Below are positions 19,920 through 27,364 of a stretch of DNA of 44,198 nt, in pieces; the first letter of the stretch is position 1, and each line of letters starts with the position of its first letter. The position numbers and the translations under genes were made by a program. The notes beneath the pieces were generated by a model, which saw nothing but the letters and a program-made list of their open reading frames with translations, made no database searches and was not told where the DNA came from. Origin of the DNA: a virus (taxonomy: Duplodnaviria > Heunggongvirae > Uroviricota > Caudoviricetes). The stretch lies in IMG/VR virus record IMGVR_UViG_2541047823_000013. The stretch is one strand, 5' to 3'.

Positions 19920-20055
19920 AATTTCTTACCGTTATGGTTGACAATGAGAACTGTTTTCATTTAAAAAACCGATATACGAAAGCATCTTTTCTTTACATTC
20001 TCCATTGGGATTACCTCCGCCAGCTTCCATTCCTGCCGCTGGCGGCCTTTTTTTA

Positions 20056-22017
20056 TCATGCCGCGGCATCCGCGTTGTTCACTTCCACCTTCACACTGTC
20101 AATCAGCAGCGTATATGTCGCCGCCTTTGATATGCCTGTCAGTTGCAGTTTGTCCGCCGCCCCTGATGCCGGAGATTTCACCAGTGTGAACGGCGTCCCC
20201 CGTTTCTCATCCAGTACCGGCGTCACCTGAATGCTGTTGTTTCCGGCAAACTCAAAAGCCAGTGTGTGCCATCCGTTATCAAAGACCCCGAACGTATCCA
20301 GCTTCGCATTCGGCTTCTTGTGGTGCATCGCGTTCAGGTTCGTCGCATCCGTCTGCAGGAAGAAGGACATCAGCATGTCGTTGCCTTCCTCTGCCAGCGT
20401 CACTCCCTCCGGCAGGGACGACAACTGCCAGTAAATGCCCAGGGCAAACTGATTCGGCACCAGTGAACCCGGCAACTTAAACCGTACGCTCACACGTCCC
20501 CCCTTCTTCAGTAACTCCACTCCCTGTCCGGCTGCATCATGCTCCAGAAACCAGATGTGGTTTTCCGGTTTATTCAGTTGCAGGGCCTTACCTCCCGTAG
20601 CCCCCGCATCACTGACCACCGCTTCAGCAATGTTTTTGTTAACATTGTCTCCGCTCGCCGGTTTGTGATAATAGCGCCAGCCCTGTGATGCCAGGTCTTC
20701 GCCGGACGCCAGCAGACTCATCAGGGTTCGGTTACTGACCGGGGCTTCCGGCTCTCTCTCCGTACCTTCACCGGAAGGTCCGGTGGGCTTCACCGTATCA
20801 GGCTGTTTTCCGGTAATGAATTCAGCGTTTCTCCCGGCATGCACAAGAATCGCCGTTGCCAGACGGTCGGAAATAATCCCACGACGTGCCCATGATCCAA
20901 AATGCGTTTTACGGTCAGCCGTCGTCCAGGTTTTGGCGTCCGTTCGACCACCGGCTCCGTAATACCCAATATCCGCAACATCCGGATCTTCTGACGGCTC
21001 GTTGGTACCCACATTTCGCCCGTTTTCATCCGTCATAAACGGCACAAAGAAGATTTTTTTTGCGGATTTCGTCTTGTATGCACCATACACCGCATCGTAT
21101 TGCGAAGAATAAGTCTGCTTCCAGTAGTAGGTCGTGTCGCCACAAATCCAGGGAACTGATGACGGAGAGCCCCCGAGACACTGACCTCCGAATTCCGACA
21201 GGTCAGAACGATATTTTTCCACCATGGAATCAAACAGCCCCGGCTGAGTGGCGTATGCACCCTGTTTCAAATCAAACTCGCCCTGCATCCAGACCACTGC
21301 AAGCAGAATATTTTTAGGGTTGGCCTTCAGTGCGGCCTGAGTACGGGTAAGCAGGTCCTTGTACAGTGGCTTATCTACACCCCAGCGTGCCGAGGTCTCG
21401 CTTGCGCCGGTGGATTCGCTGAAGGTACCTTCATCGCCCGCCAAAAATGCAGAACCACCACGGCAGCACGGAACCAGAAGAATACCGGCATTCGCCGGAA
21501 TAAACGGCAACAATTTCTTCGCGATATGTAATCCCTGCCCCACGCATCCATACTGAGCTGCGCTGGCTTTCGGGTGTGAAAACTTACTCAAATCCTGAAC
21601 ATCATGCAGGCAGTGGTCCGCAGGAATAATGTCATTGTAGTTACAGGACGCACCACCCGGCGTGACAGTGCTGCGACGCGCCAGCTGTTTAATACGCGGG
21701 TCCGGACGGTCATATGTCTCCGGCAGCGGAAGCCCTTCACCATACGCCATACCGTTTGACTGCCCGGCCAGGGCAACAACAAAGTAATACTCCGGGTTGC
21801 TGGTGGTGCTGATAACTGCGCCTTCTCCATCCGACGGCTTCACCACCACAGGTGTGGTGACATCACCTTCCGCCGCAATGGCCTGCATCAGGGTATAAGG
21901 CGTGATGGCCACCGGACTGCCAAATGGCTGCCACCCCTCCTTCAGTTTTTGTGTCAGTCGTTTCGCAAGGTCTGACGGCGATGCCGCCCTGACCACGTCA
22001 TAGTGTTTAAATGCCAT
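20056..22017 (-). CDS. nanS-p: sialate O-acetylesterase, prophage NanS-p type
   Basis: 653 aa; N-terminal MAFKHYDVVRAASPSDLAKRLTQKLKEGWQPFGSP, SGNH-type GQSNGMAYGEG block, C-terminal beta-rich domain; GGAGG RBS 6 nt upstream. Confidence 0.85.
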   Translation of the reverse strand: MAFKHYDVVRAASPSDLAKRLTQKLKEGWQPFGSPVAITPYTLMQAIAAEGDVTTPVVVKPSDGEGAVISTTSNPEYYFVVALAGQSNGMAYGEGLPLPETYDRPDPRIKQLARRSTVTPGGASCNYNDIIPADHCLHDVQDLSKFSHPKASAAQYGCVGQGLHIAKKLLPFIPANAGILLVPCCRGGSAFLAGDEGTFSESTGASETSARWGVDKPLYKDLLTRTQAALKANPKNILLAVVWMQGEFDLKQGAYATQPGLFDSMVEKYRSDLSEFGGQCLGGSPSSVPWICGDTTYYWKQTYSSQYDAVYGAYKTKSAKKIFFVPFMTDENGRNVGTNEPSEDPDVADIGYYGAGGRTDAKTWTTADRKTHFGSWARRGIISDRLATAILVHAGRNAEFITGKQPDTVKPTGPSGEGTEREPEAPVSNRTLMSLLASGEDLASQGWRYYHKPASGDNVNKNIAEAVVSDAGATGGKALQLNKPENHIWFLEHDAAGQGVELLKKGGRVSVRFKLPGSLVPNQFALGIYWQLSSLPEGVTLAEEGNDMLMSFFLQTDATNLNAMHHKKPNAKLDTFGVFDNGWHTLAFEFAGNNSIQVTPVLDEKRGTPFTLVKSPASGAADKLQLTGISKAATYTLLIDSVKVEVNNADAAA

Positions 22018-22603
22018 GAATCCTCCCGGCCGGGATAATATTGTGAGTAAAATAAGGAGCGGGCTGAAGTCCGGAAGTTACAGGACAATGGCAGAAGAGA
22101 GACGACAGCCCGCAATTCGAAAAAGACCGCGCAGTTGCGCAGCCTTATGAATTCTGGTTAAAATCCATTCGATTATAAAAATGTATATCTCATGCTGTTG
22201 CCCGAACCCACTCGGGCTTTTTTTTGCCCACAAGAAAGCCCCTCCGGAGAGGGGCTAAAGCCGCGTATCTGTATCATCATGCACATGATGCCGGGTGCCT
22301 CCCGGTGAGTTCAGTATCAGCACCTGAACCCGCACAGAAAGGATAAGGGTCGGTGACAAAACACCAGTTGCTGATTGCCCCTCCGCACAGGGGGATTCAC
22401 CATGCCAGTTTCTTTTAACAAATTCGCCGCTAACAGGACAACATTCCGCTTTCTGAGTTGTGAGGAATTTAACACTTCACACCTGTGTGCATTTTCTACA
22501 GGCTGATCCCAGCACCACAATACATCGCAGGCAACAGAAGCCAAATGCCCCACCACAGAAAAAACATGCAATTATGATTATTGTTTACTGCAAAGATGTA
22601 GAA

Positions 22604-23032
22604 TCACGGTTTAAAATCCAGCACTCCATTGTGAAATACTTTATATACTTCCGGAGACGGCGGAACTGGTATATCAGCATGCTTCACCGCATTCATCGCT
22701 TCACGACATAAATCGGGGTCTCCACCTTCTCTTTTAACCTGTAGCAGAAGACCATTCGGGGCCATATACATTCTCAGTGAACACTCTTTTCCTGAATACT
22801 TACTCGCATCCTTTAACTGTTCTTCTATGGCTTTCCTGACCTGAATGGCATACTGCCTGATTTCTTCACTGGCATCAGGGGTACGTTCCGATGAGCTCAA
22901 ATTTTGCGACTTTATTAATTTATCTGAGTGATACAGAGAAGCATCATAATTATTTGTCGATACATCTTTTGTGCAGCCAGTTGTCAGACTGGCTAATATC
23001 AAAACAAGAACTGGTACAGCACGGCAATACAT
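22604..23032 (-). CDS. lipoprotein with TolA C-terminal (domain III)-like module, copy 1
   Basis: 142 aa; signal peptide plus lipobox-like MYCRAVPVLVLILASLTTGC; C-terminus GKECSLRMYMAPNGLLLQVKREGGDPDLCREAMNAVKHADIPVPPSPEVYKVFHNGVLDFKP resembles the TolA C-terminus as I recall it. Confidence 0.75.
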   Translation of the reverse strand: MYCRAVPVLVLILASLTTGCTKDVSTNNYDASLYHSDKLIKSQNLSSSERTPDASEEIRQYAIQVRKAIEEQLKDASKYSGKECSLRMYMAPNGLLLQVKREGGDPDLCREAMNAVKHADIPVPPSPEVYKVFHNGVLDFKP

Positions 23033-23310
23033 TTATCCATCTCCATATTAACAAGAACAATTATCTATAAAATATAGTAAATATGCGGGATCCGGGAGGA
23101 CTTGTAACTATCATCTCCGGATCAGCATGTAGTTTTTATTTTTCCGGATGATATATGCCGCAATAATACCTCTGCATACAGATGCCTGCAAATATCTGCG
23201 AAGCATCCGGCGAGAATAAACAAGGAAGTCTGAGGCTATCTTATATGATAGCCTGTTGCTCAAAAGACAATGATTCACTCATCAGAACCAACAACGCATA
23301 ATGCAGATAA

Positions 23311-23387
23311 TGGACCGCCATCGAGGACTCGAACCCCGCGCAGCCAGCTTCGAAGGCTGGCGCTCTATCCCGATGAGCTAATGGCGG
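23311..23387 (-). tRNA. tRNA-Arg (anticodon UCG), copy 1
   Basis: 77-nt cloverleaf drawn by hand: acceptor CCGCCAT/ATGGCGG, D-arm GCTC/GAGC, anticodon loop CUUCGAA, T-arm with TTCGAGT, 3' CCA encoded. Confidence 0.75.
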
Positions 23388-23396
23388 TATGTGATA

Positions 23397-23472
23397 TGGT
23401 GGCCCTTGCTGGATTTGAACCAGCGACCTGGCGATTATGAGTCGCTCGCTCTCACCACTGAGCTAAAGGGCC
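23397..23472 (-). tRNA. tRNA-Ile2 (anticodon CAU, lysidine type; ileZ/ileX-like), copy 1
   Basis: 76 nt GGCCCTTTAGCTCAGTGGTGAGAGCGAGCGACTCATAATCGCCAGGTCGCTGGTTCAAATCCAGCAAGGGCCACCA; very close to E. coli tRNA-Ile2 as I recall it. Confidence 0.85.
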
Positions 23473-23512
23473 GGGCGCAGGATAATAACGGTACGTAACT
23501 AATTCTGCAATA

Positions 23513-23851
23513 TCATCCGTTCTGACTGACTAAATCCTGAACTTCCCGAACCGTCTGCTCAAAACGTTCAGTCTCCAGCTCAACGCCTGTAGCACGACGG
23601 CCCAGTGCCAGTGCAGCTTTAACTGTTGAACCTGACCCCATAAAAAAATCTGCAACCAGGTCACCCGGACGACTGCTTGCGCTGATTATCTGCTGCAGCA
23701 TTTCTGCCGGTTTTTCGCACGGATGTTTCCCGGGATAGAACTGCACCGGTTTATGCGTCCAGACATCGGTATACGGCACCTGCGCCGTCACGCCAAAATA
23801 CCGCCGCAGTCGGCATTCACAACCACCAGCGCATTTAACGTTCAGGCACAA
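23513..23851 (-). pseudogene. DNA methyltransferase remnant (C-terminal part of an N6/N4 beta-class MTase), copy 1
   Basis: Only the HPCEKP ... DFFMGSGST(V) SAM-binding end is present; the N-terminal catalytic region is absent and the frame is closed by a stop about 70 nt upstream. Confidence 0.6.
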
Positions 23852-23880
23852 AAAAACCCGCTCGACGGCGGGTTTAAGCT
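23852..23880 (-). terminator. intrinsic terminator-like hairpin, copy 1
   Basis: ACCCGC-TCGACG-GCGGGT stem-loop followed on the minus strand by T7. Confidence 0.5.
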
Positions 23881-24301
23881 GTGTGACGAAGTAACCACTC
23901 TTAACAGCATAACCAATTTTTTACGTACGTAAACTACTAAATGATATTTGTGAGAATGCCACCGAGTGTTCAAAACACCACCACAAATACATAAGAAAAC
24001 TTCAACAAATAACCAATGAATAATTTCCGATGTTATTTTTAGGTTGTTTAAATTAAGCCAAAAAATTATAGGGTACTTATAAATAAGTGTCATTAATATA
24101 AATTAGCTAATAGATTTATTTTTGTTCAAACAAGAGCCATGAATAGGATTAGATAGAAAAGGTTCAGATAAAAATAGAGATCTACGTCAAAAATTAAATG
24201 AGAAACTAAAACTTACATCTTGAAATAATCACATTGATTAGATGAATATTTATCGCGCAGTGACATCATTTTTTTATAATAGTTCAAAAAAAGGGCGTAC
24301 A

Positions 24302-24850
24302 ATGAAAAAATTAACAGTGGCAATTTCTGCTGTAGCTGCATCAGTACTGATGGCGATGTCTGCTCAGGCAGCTGAAATTTATAATAAAGACAGTAACAAG
24401 CTGGATCTATACGGGAAAGTTAATGCCAAGCACTACTTCTCCTCTAATGATGCAGATGATGGTGATACTACTTATGCTCGTCTTGGCTTCAAAGGTGAAA
24501 CCCAAATCAACGATCAACTGACTGGTTTCGGTCAGTGGGAATATGACTTCAAAGGCAACCGTGCTGAATCTCAAGGTTCTTCCAAAGACAAAACCCGTCT
24601 TGCATTTGCAGGCCTGAAATTTGGTGATTACGGCTCAATCGATTACGGCCGTAACTTCGGTGTAGCATACGACATCGGTGCGTGGACTGACGTCCTGCCA
24701 GAATTCGGTGGTGACACTTGGACTCAAACCGACGTGTTCATGACTCAACGTGCAACTGGTGTTGCAACTTATCGTAACAACGACTTCTTTGGTCTGGTCG
24801 ATGGCCTGAACTTTGCTGCTCACTGCCCGGCCAGGGCAACAACAAAGTAA
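24302..24850 (+). pseudogene. truncated porin fragment (codons 1 to ~173) fused to 9 out-of-context codons at the duplication junction
   Basis: Same start, signal peptide and upstream region as the intact porin at 27365; diverges after ...NFAA into HCPARATTK and stops. Confidence 0.8.
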
Positions 24851-25080
24851 TACTCCGGGTTGCTGGTGGTGCTGATAACTGCGCCTTCTCCATCCGACGG
24901 CTTCACCACCACAGGTGTGGTGACATCACCTTCCGCCGCAATGGCCTGCATCAGGGTATAAGGCGTGATGGCCACCGGACTGCCAAATGGCTGCCACCCC
25001 TCCTTCAGTTTTTGTGTCAGTCGTTTCGCAAGGTCTGACGGCGATGCCGCCCTGACCACGTCATAGTGTTTAAATGCCAT
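24823..25080 (-). pseudogene. duplicated 5' fragment of nanS-p (first 86 codons)
   Basis: Identical to 21760..22017; ends at a TGA created by the junction. Confidence 0.8.
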
Positions 25081-25666
25081 GAATCCTCCCGGCCGGGATA
25101 ATATTGTGAGTAAAATAAGGAGCGGGCTGAAGTCCGGAAGTTACAGGACAATGGCAGAAGAGAGACGACAGCCCGCAATTCGAAAAAGACCGCGCAGTTG
25201 CGCAGCCTTATGAATTCTGGTTAAAATCCATTCGATTATAAAAATGTATATCTCATGCTGTTGCCCGAACCCACTCGGGCTTTTTTTTGCCCACAAGAAA
25301 GCCCCTCCGGAGAGGGGCTAAAGCCGCGTATCTGTATCATCATGCACATGATGCCGGGTGCCTCCCGGTGAGTTCAGTATCAGCACCTGAACCCGCACAG
25401 AAAGGATAAGGGTCGGTGACAAAACACCAGTTGCTGATTGCCCCTCCGCACAGGGGGATTCACCATGCCAGTTTCTTTTAACAAATTCGCCGCTAACAGG
25501 ACAACATTCCGCTTTCTGAGTTGTGAGGAATTTAACACTTCACACCTGTGTGCATTTTCTACAGGCTGATCCCAGCACCACAATACATCGCAGGCAACAG
25601 AAGCCAAATGCCCCACCACAGAAAAAACATGCAATTATGATTATTGTTTACTGCAAAGATGTAGAA

Positions 25667-26095
25667 TCACGGTTTAAAATCCAGCACTCCATTGTGAAAT
25701 ACTTTATATACTTCCGGAGACGGCGGAACTGGTATATCAGCATGCTTCACCGCATTCATCGCTTCACGACATAAATCGGGGTCTCCACCTTCTCTTTTAA
25801 CCTGTAGCAGAAGACCATTCGGGGCCATATACATTCTCAGTGAACACTCTTTTCCTGAATACTTACTCGCATCCTTTAACTGTTCTTCTATGGCTTTCCT
25901 GACCTGAATGGCATACTGCCTGATTTCTTCACTGGCATCAGGGGTACGTTCCGATGAGCTCAAATTTTGCGACTTTATTAATTTATCTGAGTGATACAGA
26001 GAAGCATCATAATTATTTGTCGATACATCTTTTGTGCAGCCAGTTGTCAGACTGGCTAATATCAAAACAAGAACTGGTACAGCACGGCAATACAT
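25667..26095 (-). CDS. lipoprotein with TolA C-terminal (domain III)-like module, copy 2
   Basis: Translation identical to 22604..23032. Confidence 0.75.
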   Translation of the reverse strand: MYCRAVPVLVLILASLTTGCTKDVSTNNYDASLYHSDKLIKSQNLSSSERTPDASEEIRQYAIQVRKAIEEQLKDASKYSGKECSLRMYMAPNGLLLQVKREGGDPDLCREAMNAVKHADIPVPPSPEVYKVFHNGVLDFKP

Positions 26096-26373
26096 TTATC
26101 CATCTCCATATTAACAAGAACAATTATCTATAAAATATAGTAAATATGCGGGATCCGGGAGGACTTGTAACTATCATCTCCGGATCAGCATGTAGTTTTT
26201 ATTTTTCCGGATGATATATGCCGCAATAATACCTCTGCATACAGATGCCTGCAAATATCTGCGAAGCATCCGGCGAGAATAAACAAGGAAGTCTGAGGCT
26301 ATCTTATATGATAGCCTGTTGCTCAAAAGACAATGATTCACTCATCAGAACCAACAACGCATAATGCAGATAA

Positions 26374-26450
26374 TGGACCGCCATCGAGGACTCGAACCCC
26401 GCGCAGCCAGCTTCGAAGGCTGGCGCTCTATCCCGATGAGCTAATGGCGG
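26374..26450 (-). tRNA. tRNA-Arg (anticodon UCG), copy 2
   Basis: Duplicate of 23311..23387. Confidence 0.75.
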
Positions 26451-26459
26451 TATGTGATA

Positions 26460-26535
26460 TGGTGGCCCTTGCTGGATTTGAACCAGCGACCTGGCGATTA
26501 TGAGTCGCTCGCTCTCACCACTGAGCTAAAGGGCC
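26460..26535 (-). tRNA. tRNA-Ile2 (anticodon CAU), copy 2
   Basis: Duplicate of 23397..23472. Confidence 0.85.
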
Positions 26536-26575
26536 GGGCGCAGGATAATAACGGTACGTAACTAATTCTGCAATA

Positions 26576-26914
26576 TCATCCGTTCTGACTGACTAAATCC
26601 TGAACTTCCCGAACCGTCTGCTCAAAACGTTCAGTCTCCAGCTCAACGCCTGTAGCACGACGGCCCAGTGCCAGTGCAGCTTTAACTGTTGAACCTGACC
26701 CCATAAAAAAATCTGCAACCAGGTCACCCGGACGACTGCTTGCGCTGATTATCTGCTGCAGCATTTCTGCCGGTTTTTCGCACGGATGTTTCCCGGGATA
26801 GAACTGCACCGGTTTATGCGTCCAGACATCGGTATACGGCACCTGCGCCGTCACGCCAAAATACCGCCGCAGTCGGCATTCACAACCACCAGCGCATTTA
26901 ACGTTCAGGCACAA
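26576..26914 (-). pseudogene. DNA methyltransferase remnant, copy 2
   Basis: Duplicate of 23513..23851. Confidence 0.6.
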
Positions 26915-27364
26915 AAAAACCCGCTCGACGGCGGGTTTAAGCTGTGTGACGAAGTAACCACTCTTAACAGCATAACCAATTTTTTACGTACGTAAACTAC
27001 TAAATGATATTTGTGAGAATGCCACCGAGTGTTCAAAACACCACCACAAATACATAAGAAAACTTCAACAAATAACCAATGAATAATTTCCGATGTTATT
27101 TTTAGGTTGTTTAAATTAAGCCAAAAAATTATAGGGTACTTATAAATAAGTGTCATTAATATAAATTAGCTAATAGATTTATTTTTGTTCAAACAAGAGC
27201 CATGAATAGGATTAGATAGAAAAGGTTCAGATAAAAATAGAGATCTACGTCAAAAATTAAATGAGAAACTAAAACTTACATCTTGAAATAATCACATTGA
27301 TTAGATGAATATTTATCGCGCAGTGACATCATTTTTTTATAATAGTTCAAAAAAAGGGCGTACA

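Follow-up and report, generated by a model that had tools for sequence, protein, structure and literature searches.

The third domain of Escherichia coli TolA (TolA-III), the dominant-negative effect of that domain once it is freed from the rest of the protein, and the phage exclusion lipoproteins Cor and Llp are already known. Periplasmic TolA-III reportedly goes back to Levengood-Freyermuth, Click and Webster in 1993 and to Wan and Baneyx in 1998, and in the 1993 Levengood-Freyermuth study free TolA-III is reported to have brought about tolerance to colicins E1, E2, E3 and A. Here we analyze a gene at 22604..23032 of IMG/VR virus record IMGVR_UViG_2541047823_000013, a stretch of 44,198 nucleotides (Caudoviricetes) that is referred to as the window throughout. 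The window holds a lambdoid prophage of E. coli, and the gene encodes a predicted lipoprotein of 142 amino acids (aa) with a TolA-III module. We give about even chances to the proposal that this protein is a competitive decoy for Tol-dependent ligands.

The C-terminal beta3 strand of TolA-III binds the N-terminus of TolB, the g3p-N1 domain of filamentous phage and colicin N (ColN) by beta-strand augmentation (PMC4339652, PMC7391070). D418 and K420 of TolA are the backbone hydrogen-bond donors for g3p-N1, ColN and TolB, and either of the substitutions D418P and K420P abolishes all three interactions and gives the full tol phenotype (PMC4339652). Affinities are about 1 uM for ColN and about 40 uM for TolB (PMC4339652, PMC7391070). 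Colicin A docks on the opposite edge of the domain, at L375-P380 together with K368, K379 and K396 (PMC3365938). When TolA-III is exported without an anchor, E. coli leaks periplasmic protein (PMC6195910).

Domain architecture of the prophage lipoprotein

The window is given 5' to 3' along one strand, the prophage reads from right to left along it, and both copies of the TolA-III gene lie on the minus strand. The first copy, at the coordinates given above, encodes 142 aa and ends in a stop codon at 22604-22606; a GGAG ribosome-binding site stands 8 nt 5' of its ATG. The predicted signal peptide and lipobox Cys20 are encoded at 22973..23032, and this N-terminus reads MYCRAVPVLVLILASLTTG-C20-TKD, with a basic R4, the hydrophobic stretch VPVLVLILASL, the lipobox L-T-T-G-C20 and Thr at the +2 position. 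It fits the PROSITE lipoprotein pattern PS51257, and the lipobox Cys is invariant in a 40-sequence alignment of the family. Under the established rules, Thr rather than Asp at +2 means Lol-dependent sorting to the outer membrane, and the protein is predicted to be lipidated and sorted there. Residues 21-52 (22877..22972) form a linker rich in Ser, Asn and Asp, which is predicted to be disordered (predicted local distance difference test score, pLDDT, of 52-59 in AlphaFold2, AF2) and is poorly conserved, with a ratio of nonsynonymous to synonymous substitution rates (dN/dS) of 0.34-0.84.

The remainder, residues 53-142 (22607..22876), corresponds to TolA domain III, including Cys84 and Cys109 (C363 and C388 of TolA) and the terminal strand LDFKP. 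Pfam TolA_C (PF06519) matches the open reading frame (ORF) with 81.9 bits (cut-off 25; E=3.8e-23), over residues 52-140 and profile positions 7-96 of 96. An ungapped alignment pairs residues 54-142 with E. coli TolA 333-421; 48/89 positions are identical (54%), and the same residues are covered by phmmer against TolA-III chains of the PDB at E about 1e-26. An AF2 model built on the 40-sequence multiple sequence alignment (MSA) of the family reaches a pLDDT of 89-98 in the domain and about 55 over residues 1-53. Its best Foldseek match is E. coli TolA-III 2x9a_B (template modeling score, TM, of 0.96; root-mean-square deviation of 0.6 A; 88 columns), and TolA-III structures rank first with TonB C-terminal structures after them, a result to be read with the caveat that TolA-III may have been in the AF2 training data. 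This model supersedes an earlier run on a 5-sequence MSA, in which the mean pLDDT was 60.5 and the TM to TolA-III was 0.35-0.56.

The LDFKP terminus equals TolA 417-421 with no substitution. The disulfide cysteines C84 and C109 are kept, being at least 90% conserved among the 40 family members, in which the lipobox Cys, the disulfide pair, core Gly, Asp and Pro residues, and F140 (equivalent to TolA F419) are invariant or nearly so. The colicin A edge is partly kept: LLQVKR stands for LLDIKP, and K379, K396, L375 and L376 are retained, whereas K368 is changed to Tyr, D377 to Gln and P380 to Arg. Judged by its sequence, the 142-aa ORF is a stand-alone and complete TolA domain III behind a lipoprotein signal and a linker of about 32 residues.

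An earlier note on this DNA, made from its letters alone, had placed the 142-aa ORF at exactly these coordinates while giving no strand, and had credited it with a lipoprotein-type signal, with which the lipobox LTTGC followed by T agrees. Its alignment with the C-terminus of E. coli TolA proved correct, and the profile and structure comparisons that it proposed have returned the TolA-III matches described here.

Misannotation as TolA

The identical protein in strain CE10, WP_000271630.1, carries the name 'cell envelope integrity protein TolA' in the Prokaryotic Genome Annotation Pipeline (PGAP). However, the inner-membrane helix of domain I, which couples TolA to TolQ-TolR, is absent, and the N-terminus is a signal peptide of 19 residues ending at the lipobox Cys. 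Domain II, the long periplasm-spanning helix rich in Ala, Lys and Glu, is absent too, leaving 142 aa in comparison with 421 aa for TolA. The equivalog model NF007065 scores 104.6, below its cut-off of 213, and TIGR02794 is above threshold (74.2 versus 59.45), yet only profile positions 266-362, the last 97, are matched. The gene does not lie in the ybgC-tolQRA-tolB-pal-cpoB operon, its neighbors being Q, tRNAs, nanS-p and a holin gene. Since the anchor helix, domain II and the tol-pal context are all missing and NF007065 stays below its cut-off, the PGAP label 'tolA' is a mis-assignment. Hundreds of genomes contain a 142-aa gene labeled 'tolA' that cannot be TolA, a systematic annotation error whatever the function of the protein may be. 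In PHROGs the protein belongs to phrog_5772, which is listed with 'unknown function'.

Distribution, alleles and purifying selection

The family occurs in about 888-897 of 5,426 complete E. coli genomes (~16%). For comparison between loci, 80 IMG/VR contigs, CE10 and phage mEp460_ev081 were taken together as 82 loci, in all of which (82/82) the ORF is intact and exactly 142 aa long, with 12 protein variants in four allele groups. The dN/dS of the TolA-III part is 0.23-0.36, which indicates that this part is under purifying selection. The window allele, A1, is rare, and its whole 901-bp region is matched in 15 genomes; the common allele B, 68% identical to it, has copies of at least 99% identity in 781 genomes. 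Wherever the flanks are recognizable, the gene is co-oriented and lies downstream of Q and/or upstream of the holin gene, with three unrelated Q types. Homology between alleles A and B sets in only at about codon 19, and their signal peptides and upstream DNA differ. That two signal peptides are joined to the same mature protein argues for selection on an exported lipoprotein. A promoter traveling with the gene was considered and rejected when the flanks of A1, A2, A3 and B were aligned; because A/B homology begins only at about codon 19, the two alleles share no promoter.

In strain NCTC9082, allele B lies in a full-length Rac-type prophage at ttcA, whose integrase and recT are frameshifted while the TolA-III gene is intact, although PGAP marks it as a partial pseudogene of tolA. 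Behind it comes a second gene for a TolA-III lipoprotein, a divergent one, whose product is of a type with 124-131 aa, a GFDMRG end and a Pfam E value of about 1e-14. Two tandem TolA-III lipoproteins of this kind are found in full-length Rac-type prophages and in mEp460. The positions noted for the Rac-type prophages, mEp460 and pO157 are 20001-20429 and 20601-20975 in NCTC9082 (L093), 6580-6975 in locus L002 and 5947-6378 in locus L084. pO157 encodes almost the same protein as the second paralog, in its leading region following psiB-psiA-hok. Among the INPHARED phage genomes, only mEp460_ev081 has a TolA-III homolog at E<=1e-5, so that the family is essentially a feature of prophages and plasmids. 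An O157 proteome paper was checked for expression of prophage TonB/TolA-like proteins and yielded nothing usable.

Relatives on plasmids, at microcin loci and on chromosomes

A phmmer search against 1.84 billion cluster representatives returned 330 relatives. Among the short representatives, of 110-170 aa, at least 51 have a lipobox detected by regular expression; they come from Serratia, Klebsiella, Kosakonia, Dryocola, Enterobacter, Salmonella and others, and dozens of clusters at 50% identity share the architecture of lipobox plus TolA-III. The source names of the relatives are all 'TolA' or 'colicin import membrane protein'. By tblastn, relatives are present in 1,334 plasmid records, of which three contexts were looked at, that on pO157 described above among them. 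On 10-kb cloacin-type ColRNAI plasmids of Klebsiella, a TolA-III lipoprotein gene and a TonB C-terminal-domain (TonB-C) gene with a signal peptide overlap by 4 bp (9206-9577 and 9574-9939 in NZ_CP044260.1, our L083) and adjoin the bacteriocin-immunity-lysis operon. Proteins K and L of CloDF13 were considered as such a TolA/TonB pair and proved unrelated; that slot is where the Klebsiella 10-kb relatives have the pair. A third TolA-III type is found on IncFII/IncR plasmids of Klebsiella. In Salmonella, a homolog of 128 aa (7001-7387 in L087, GCA_014724235.1) lies beside two MccV-family microcin genes, a Rce1-like (CAAX) protein, an HlyD-type exporter and a resolvase. Two chromosomal members stand in ordinary contexts, P0128 adjoining a TonB-dependent receptor gene and P0046 lying between housekeeping genes, which means that the class is not exclusively on mobile elements. 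In a neighbor-joining tree of the 90-residue domains, bona fide TolAs for the most part group together and the lipoproteins fall on scattered, deep branches, with a resolution too weak for interpreting a single origin.

A full-text literature search found no paper on a natural phage- or plasmid-borne lipoprotein TolA-III, its abundance or its TonB-C partner, which agrees with the earlier note, whose author knew of no characterized phage TolA-III decoy, and extends the statement to plasmid forms. Phage or plasmid forms go unmentioned in a survey of TolA/TonB evolution from 2025.

Companion TonB-C lipoprotein and late operon of the prophage

The same prophage encodes a second lipoprotein (16113..16454, minus strand), with the lipobox LVMGC followed by TQH and matches to Pfam TonB_C (E=1.4e-14) and to the TonB C-terminal domain in the PDB (E=4e-16). 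Its likely true start is the ATG that gives 108 aa (16113..16439), as annotated in CE10, and it keeps the PQYPA motif of TonB. Homologs are found in phage 21 (next to bor), Stx1a phages, ev017, JLK-2012 and CP-933N. PHROG 1267 calls the protein 'Rz-like spanin', probably a mislabel from its position.

The lambdoid prophage starts with an integrase (42912..44198), followed by early genes, Q and the late region. The Q antiterminator, of the quuD type, controls the late operon (28635..29033, minus strand; Pfam Phage_antitermQ E=7.7e-54, and annotated in CE10). Between Q and the late region lies a porin gene of the Lc/NmpC/OmpC type on the plus strand (27305..28447), with a GC content of 0.28 just upstream; in this AT-rich setting it is a further cargo gene that remodels the envelope. 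A promoter-like site was looked for directly downstream of Q and none was found. On the minus strand, a sigma-70 promoter-like site (ATGACA-17-TATAAT, 24065..24093) matches the consensus at 11/12 positions and, on that match, is a candidate pR'. About 200 nt past it, a hairpin with a T-run resembles an intrinsic terminator (23854..23875, minus strand) and is tR'-like; both elements have a second copy at +3063. This pR'/tR'-like pair is cut off from Q by the oppositely oriented porin gene.

The minus strand continues with a C-terminal piece from an N6/N4 DNA methyltransferase (23513..23851; Pfam positions 135-220 of 221; repeated at +3063), a pseudogene remnant between the terminator and the tRNAs. 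Next come tRNA-Met/Ile(CAT) and tRNA-Arg(TCG) (23311..23472), directly upstream of the TolA-III gene as in Stx phages and annotated in CE10. The TolA-III gene is then the first intact protein-coding gene after the pR'/tR'-like element, the methylase fragment and the tRNAs. On its 3' side lie a match to the small RNA STnc100 (22226..22434, minus strand; 132 bits in Rfam against a gathering score of 47) and one to AsxR, the anti-small RNA of Stx2 phages (22170..22222, plus strand; 63 bits, exactly at the gathering score of 63), each with a copy at +3063. Terminator-like hairpins downstream of the TolA-III gene fall within these two matches. The late operon goes on with the NanS-p esterase gene (20056..22017), the holin, lysozyme and Rz-type lysis genes, the TonB-C lipoprotein gene, and then terminase, capsid and tail genes. 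From this gene order, the TolA-III gene occupies the slot that stx has in Stx phages, and the Rfam matches to STnc100 and AsxR appear to mark the stx-equivalent locus of a non-Stx prophage.

GC content is 0.42 for the TolA-III gene and 0.44 for the TonB-like gene in a window of 0.51. This distinct composition, together with the presence or absence of the gene between Q and holin in mosaic backgrounds with three Q types, is moron-like. The large terminase subunit (12860..14522) and the portal (8225..10647), both on the minus strand, each appear split into two overlapping ORFs; the identical CE10 prophage has its portal and terminase annotated as frameshifted, and the prophage may be defective while its cargo genes stay intact.

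A tandem duplication has doubled this part of the window, in that 21759-24822 equals 24822-27885 at an offset of 3063 with one mismatch at 24592/27655. Unit 1, of 3,063 bp, is 21759..24821 and unit 2 is 24822..27885, the junction being GCTGCTCA joined to CTGCCCGG with about 1 nt of microhomology. The sole mismatch (A at 24592, C at 27655) changes Lys to Asn in the porin. The second TolA-III gene (25667..26095, minus strand) is identical to the first, and the junction itself has made a truncated porin ORF of 202 aa with a frame-shifted tail (24242..24850, plus strand) and a 5' stub of nanS-p, 86 aa of the NanS-p N-terminus (24820..25080, minus strand). The junction was found in 0 of the 5,426 complete E. 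coli genomes, and strains with the identical gene (CE10, AR_0013 and N32) have one copy each. The doubled dosage is thus either a private and very recent event or an assembly artefact, and it is not a property of the prophage element. The earlier note had placed the gene in a phage, in the slot between Q and lysis genes, with a TonB C-terminal-like lipoprotein at 16113..16454, as we also find; its claim of a doubled gene holds for the window only.

Possible functions of the lipoprotein

The proposal of a decoy builds on the architecture, fold and conserved binding edge of the protein, on purifying selection, and on its position in late operons and distribution over mobile elements. The protein would be a TolA domain III that lacks the motor and is held at the outer membrane, and its flexible linker of about 32 residues would put the domain between the outer membrane and the peptidoglycan, by porin exits and TolB-Pal, the zone where colicin translocation domains and g3p-N1 emerge. 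With the LDFKP edge and the fold kept and no coupling to TolQR, it would bind the same ligands unproductively. At low dose, the tighter binders such as ColN would be soaked up first, resulting in tolerance to group A colicins and Ff-type phages; at high dose, from Q-dependent late transcription, competition for the N-terminus of TolB could weaken Tol-Pal and cause the outer membrane to leak ahead of lysis. For TonB-box ligands, the companion TonB-C lipoprotein could do likewise. The main payoff is likely to be the blocking of Tol-dependent import, because of the recurrent pairing with TonB-C genes, the association with bacteriocin loci and the tandem divergent paralogs.

Several points weigh against a decoy, for which binding, localization, timing of expression and phenotype are inferred. 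One colicin molecule can kill a cell, so that a stoichiometric decoy must be very efficient, and a TolA-III decoy carries a cost for envelope integrity. A protective decoy needs constitutive expression in the lysogen, though co-orientation with the late operon and the lack of upstream homology between alleles A and B leave such expression unsupported. Close to the gene there is just one promoter-like site (23192-23163), which matches at 9/12 positions, and such sites are no commoner in this region than in shuffled sequence. None of the PADLOC-DB families matched the TolA-III ORF or the TonB-like ORF, and some distant members are chromosomal without a link to mobile elements or bacteriocins.

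The late-operon position also fits the main alternative, which we consider less likely and in which the protein sabotages Tol-Pal late in infection. High output from pR' would titrate the TolB N-terminus at the outer membrane in lytic growth only, and any colicin or phage tolerance would be incidental. TolA driven by the proton motive force would then no longer strip TolB from Pal, and reduced tethering of the outer membrane to peptidoglycan, with blebs and leaks, would ease the spanin step and let virions and periplasmic cargo out more readily. The place of the gene as the first intact one behind the pR'/tR'-like element, in the stx2 slot with AsxR and STnc100 just downstream, speaks for such a role, and no allele-independent promoter was found. 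The leakage caused by periplasmic TolA-III (PMC6195910), the full tol phenotype of the TolB-binding mutants D418P and K420P of TolA (PMC4339652), and the adjacency of the gene to the bacteriocin release (lysis) gene on cloacin plasmids all point the same way. Nevertheless, the lysis equipment of the prophage already includes a holin, an endolysin and an Rz-type protein, and the weak affinity between TolA and TolB (~40 uM) would call for very high levels. Late sabotage also leaves unexplained the paired TonB-C lipoprotein, which has no obvious role in lysis, as well as the divergent paralogs of Rac-type prophages and the copy in the IncF leading region, and the gene stays intact in prophages whose integrase, portal or terminase is frameshifted, which argues for a benefit other than virion production.

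It is conceivable, although we consider it improbable, that TolA-III at the outer membrane recruits or retains TolB or another partner and tunes Pal dynamics or vesiculation for the host, a lysogenic conversion without import blocking. The non-mobile chromosomal members P0128 and P0046 are in favor of this, as is a neighborhood rich in envelope genes (the Lc/NmpC-type porin, the NanS-p esterase and the TonB-C lipoprotein); on the other hand, TolA-III without TolQR coupling has been seen only as a dominant negative, and the present data suggest no partner beyond the known TolA-III ligands. Very improbable, in our judgment, is a decaying fragment or annotation artefact, that is, a captured 3' piece of tolA that hitch-hikes without function. 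PGAP does at times flag family members as partial pseudogenes, and the database variants P0022, P0024, P0028 and P0036 are frameshifted at the C-terminus; yet the gene comes with an ATG, a ribosome-binding site and a lipoprotein signal peptide of its own, types A and B fuse two non-homologous signal peptides to the same domain, the ORF is intact at all 82 loci with a dN/dS of about 0.3, and the architecture recurs in dozens of 50%-identity clusters.

Returning to the decoy, a broader and more tentative proposal, to which we give somewhat less than even chances, is that lipoprotein TolA-III genes belong, together with their TonB-C partners, to a widespread and unrecognized class of 'energy-transducer decoys'. 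Carried on prophages of the lambdoid and Rac types, on cloacin/klebicin and microcin elements and on IncF plasmids, they could make their hosts broadly tolerant to Tol- and Ton-dependent bacteriocins and phages, independently of the receptor, through mimicry of the motor tip. If this is true, the 'TolA' label hides such decoys in more than 1,300 plasmid records and in ~16% of E. coli genomes. A decoy would amount to a natural, receptor-independent tolerance to bacteriocins and filamentous phages that is spread by prophages and plasmids. It would bear on colicin ecology, on the hosts used in phage display, and on therapeutics against E. coli and Klebsiella that are based on bacteriocins or phages. 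For work on Tol-Pal, the protein would offer a dominant-negative probe of natural origin, able to tell ligand classes apart by its diverged surface. Late sabotage of Tol-Pal would instead be a new accessory step in phage lysis and in cargo release at the stx locus.

Comparison with known systems

The closest described relative is E. coli TolA-III itself (residues 333-421; PDB 1TOL, 2X9A, 3QDP/3QDR and 1S62), with the same fold, disulfide and LDFKP strand. In contrast to E. coli TolA, the prophage protein would be anchored by a lipid in the outer membrane instead of the inner one, comes from the late operon of a prophage, and has a colicin A site that is partly changed (K368Y, D377Q and P380R). 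The direct functional precedent is the engineered periplasmic TolA-III, which is likewise exported without motor coupling and makes the outer membrane leaky (PMC6195910). That construct is laboratory-made, soluble and overexpressed, whereas the prophage protein is natural, predicted to be lipid-anchored, 54% identical and selected on mobile elements. Within phages, the same design principle is found in the 'TonB C-terminal domain protein' CPT_21_73 of phage 21 and its homologs in CP-933N, ev017 and Stx1a phages, which are 72-99% identical to the TonB-C lipoprotein of the window. CPT_21_73 differs from the TolA-III lipoprotein in having a TonB domain and in lying after the lysis genes, next to bor.

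Two further systems resemble the proposed decoy in their effect. Cor of phi80, N15 and HK022, and Llp of T5, are small phage lipoproteins that act at the periplasmic face of the outer membrane and shut an import route for phages or colicins. They plug the receptor FhuA, whereas the TolA-III lipoprotein, which has no sequence relationship with them, would mimic the tip of an energy transducer. In cells infected by filamentous phage, g3p occupies TolA and brings about colicin tolerance and resistance to superinfection, through the same interaction between g3p and TolA-III. The prophage lipoprotein would mirror this logic: while g3p is a ligand that saturates the host TolA, the TolA-III lipoprotein would be a copy of the target that saturates the ligand.

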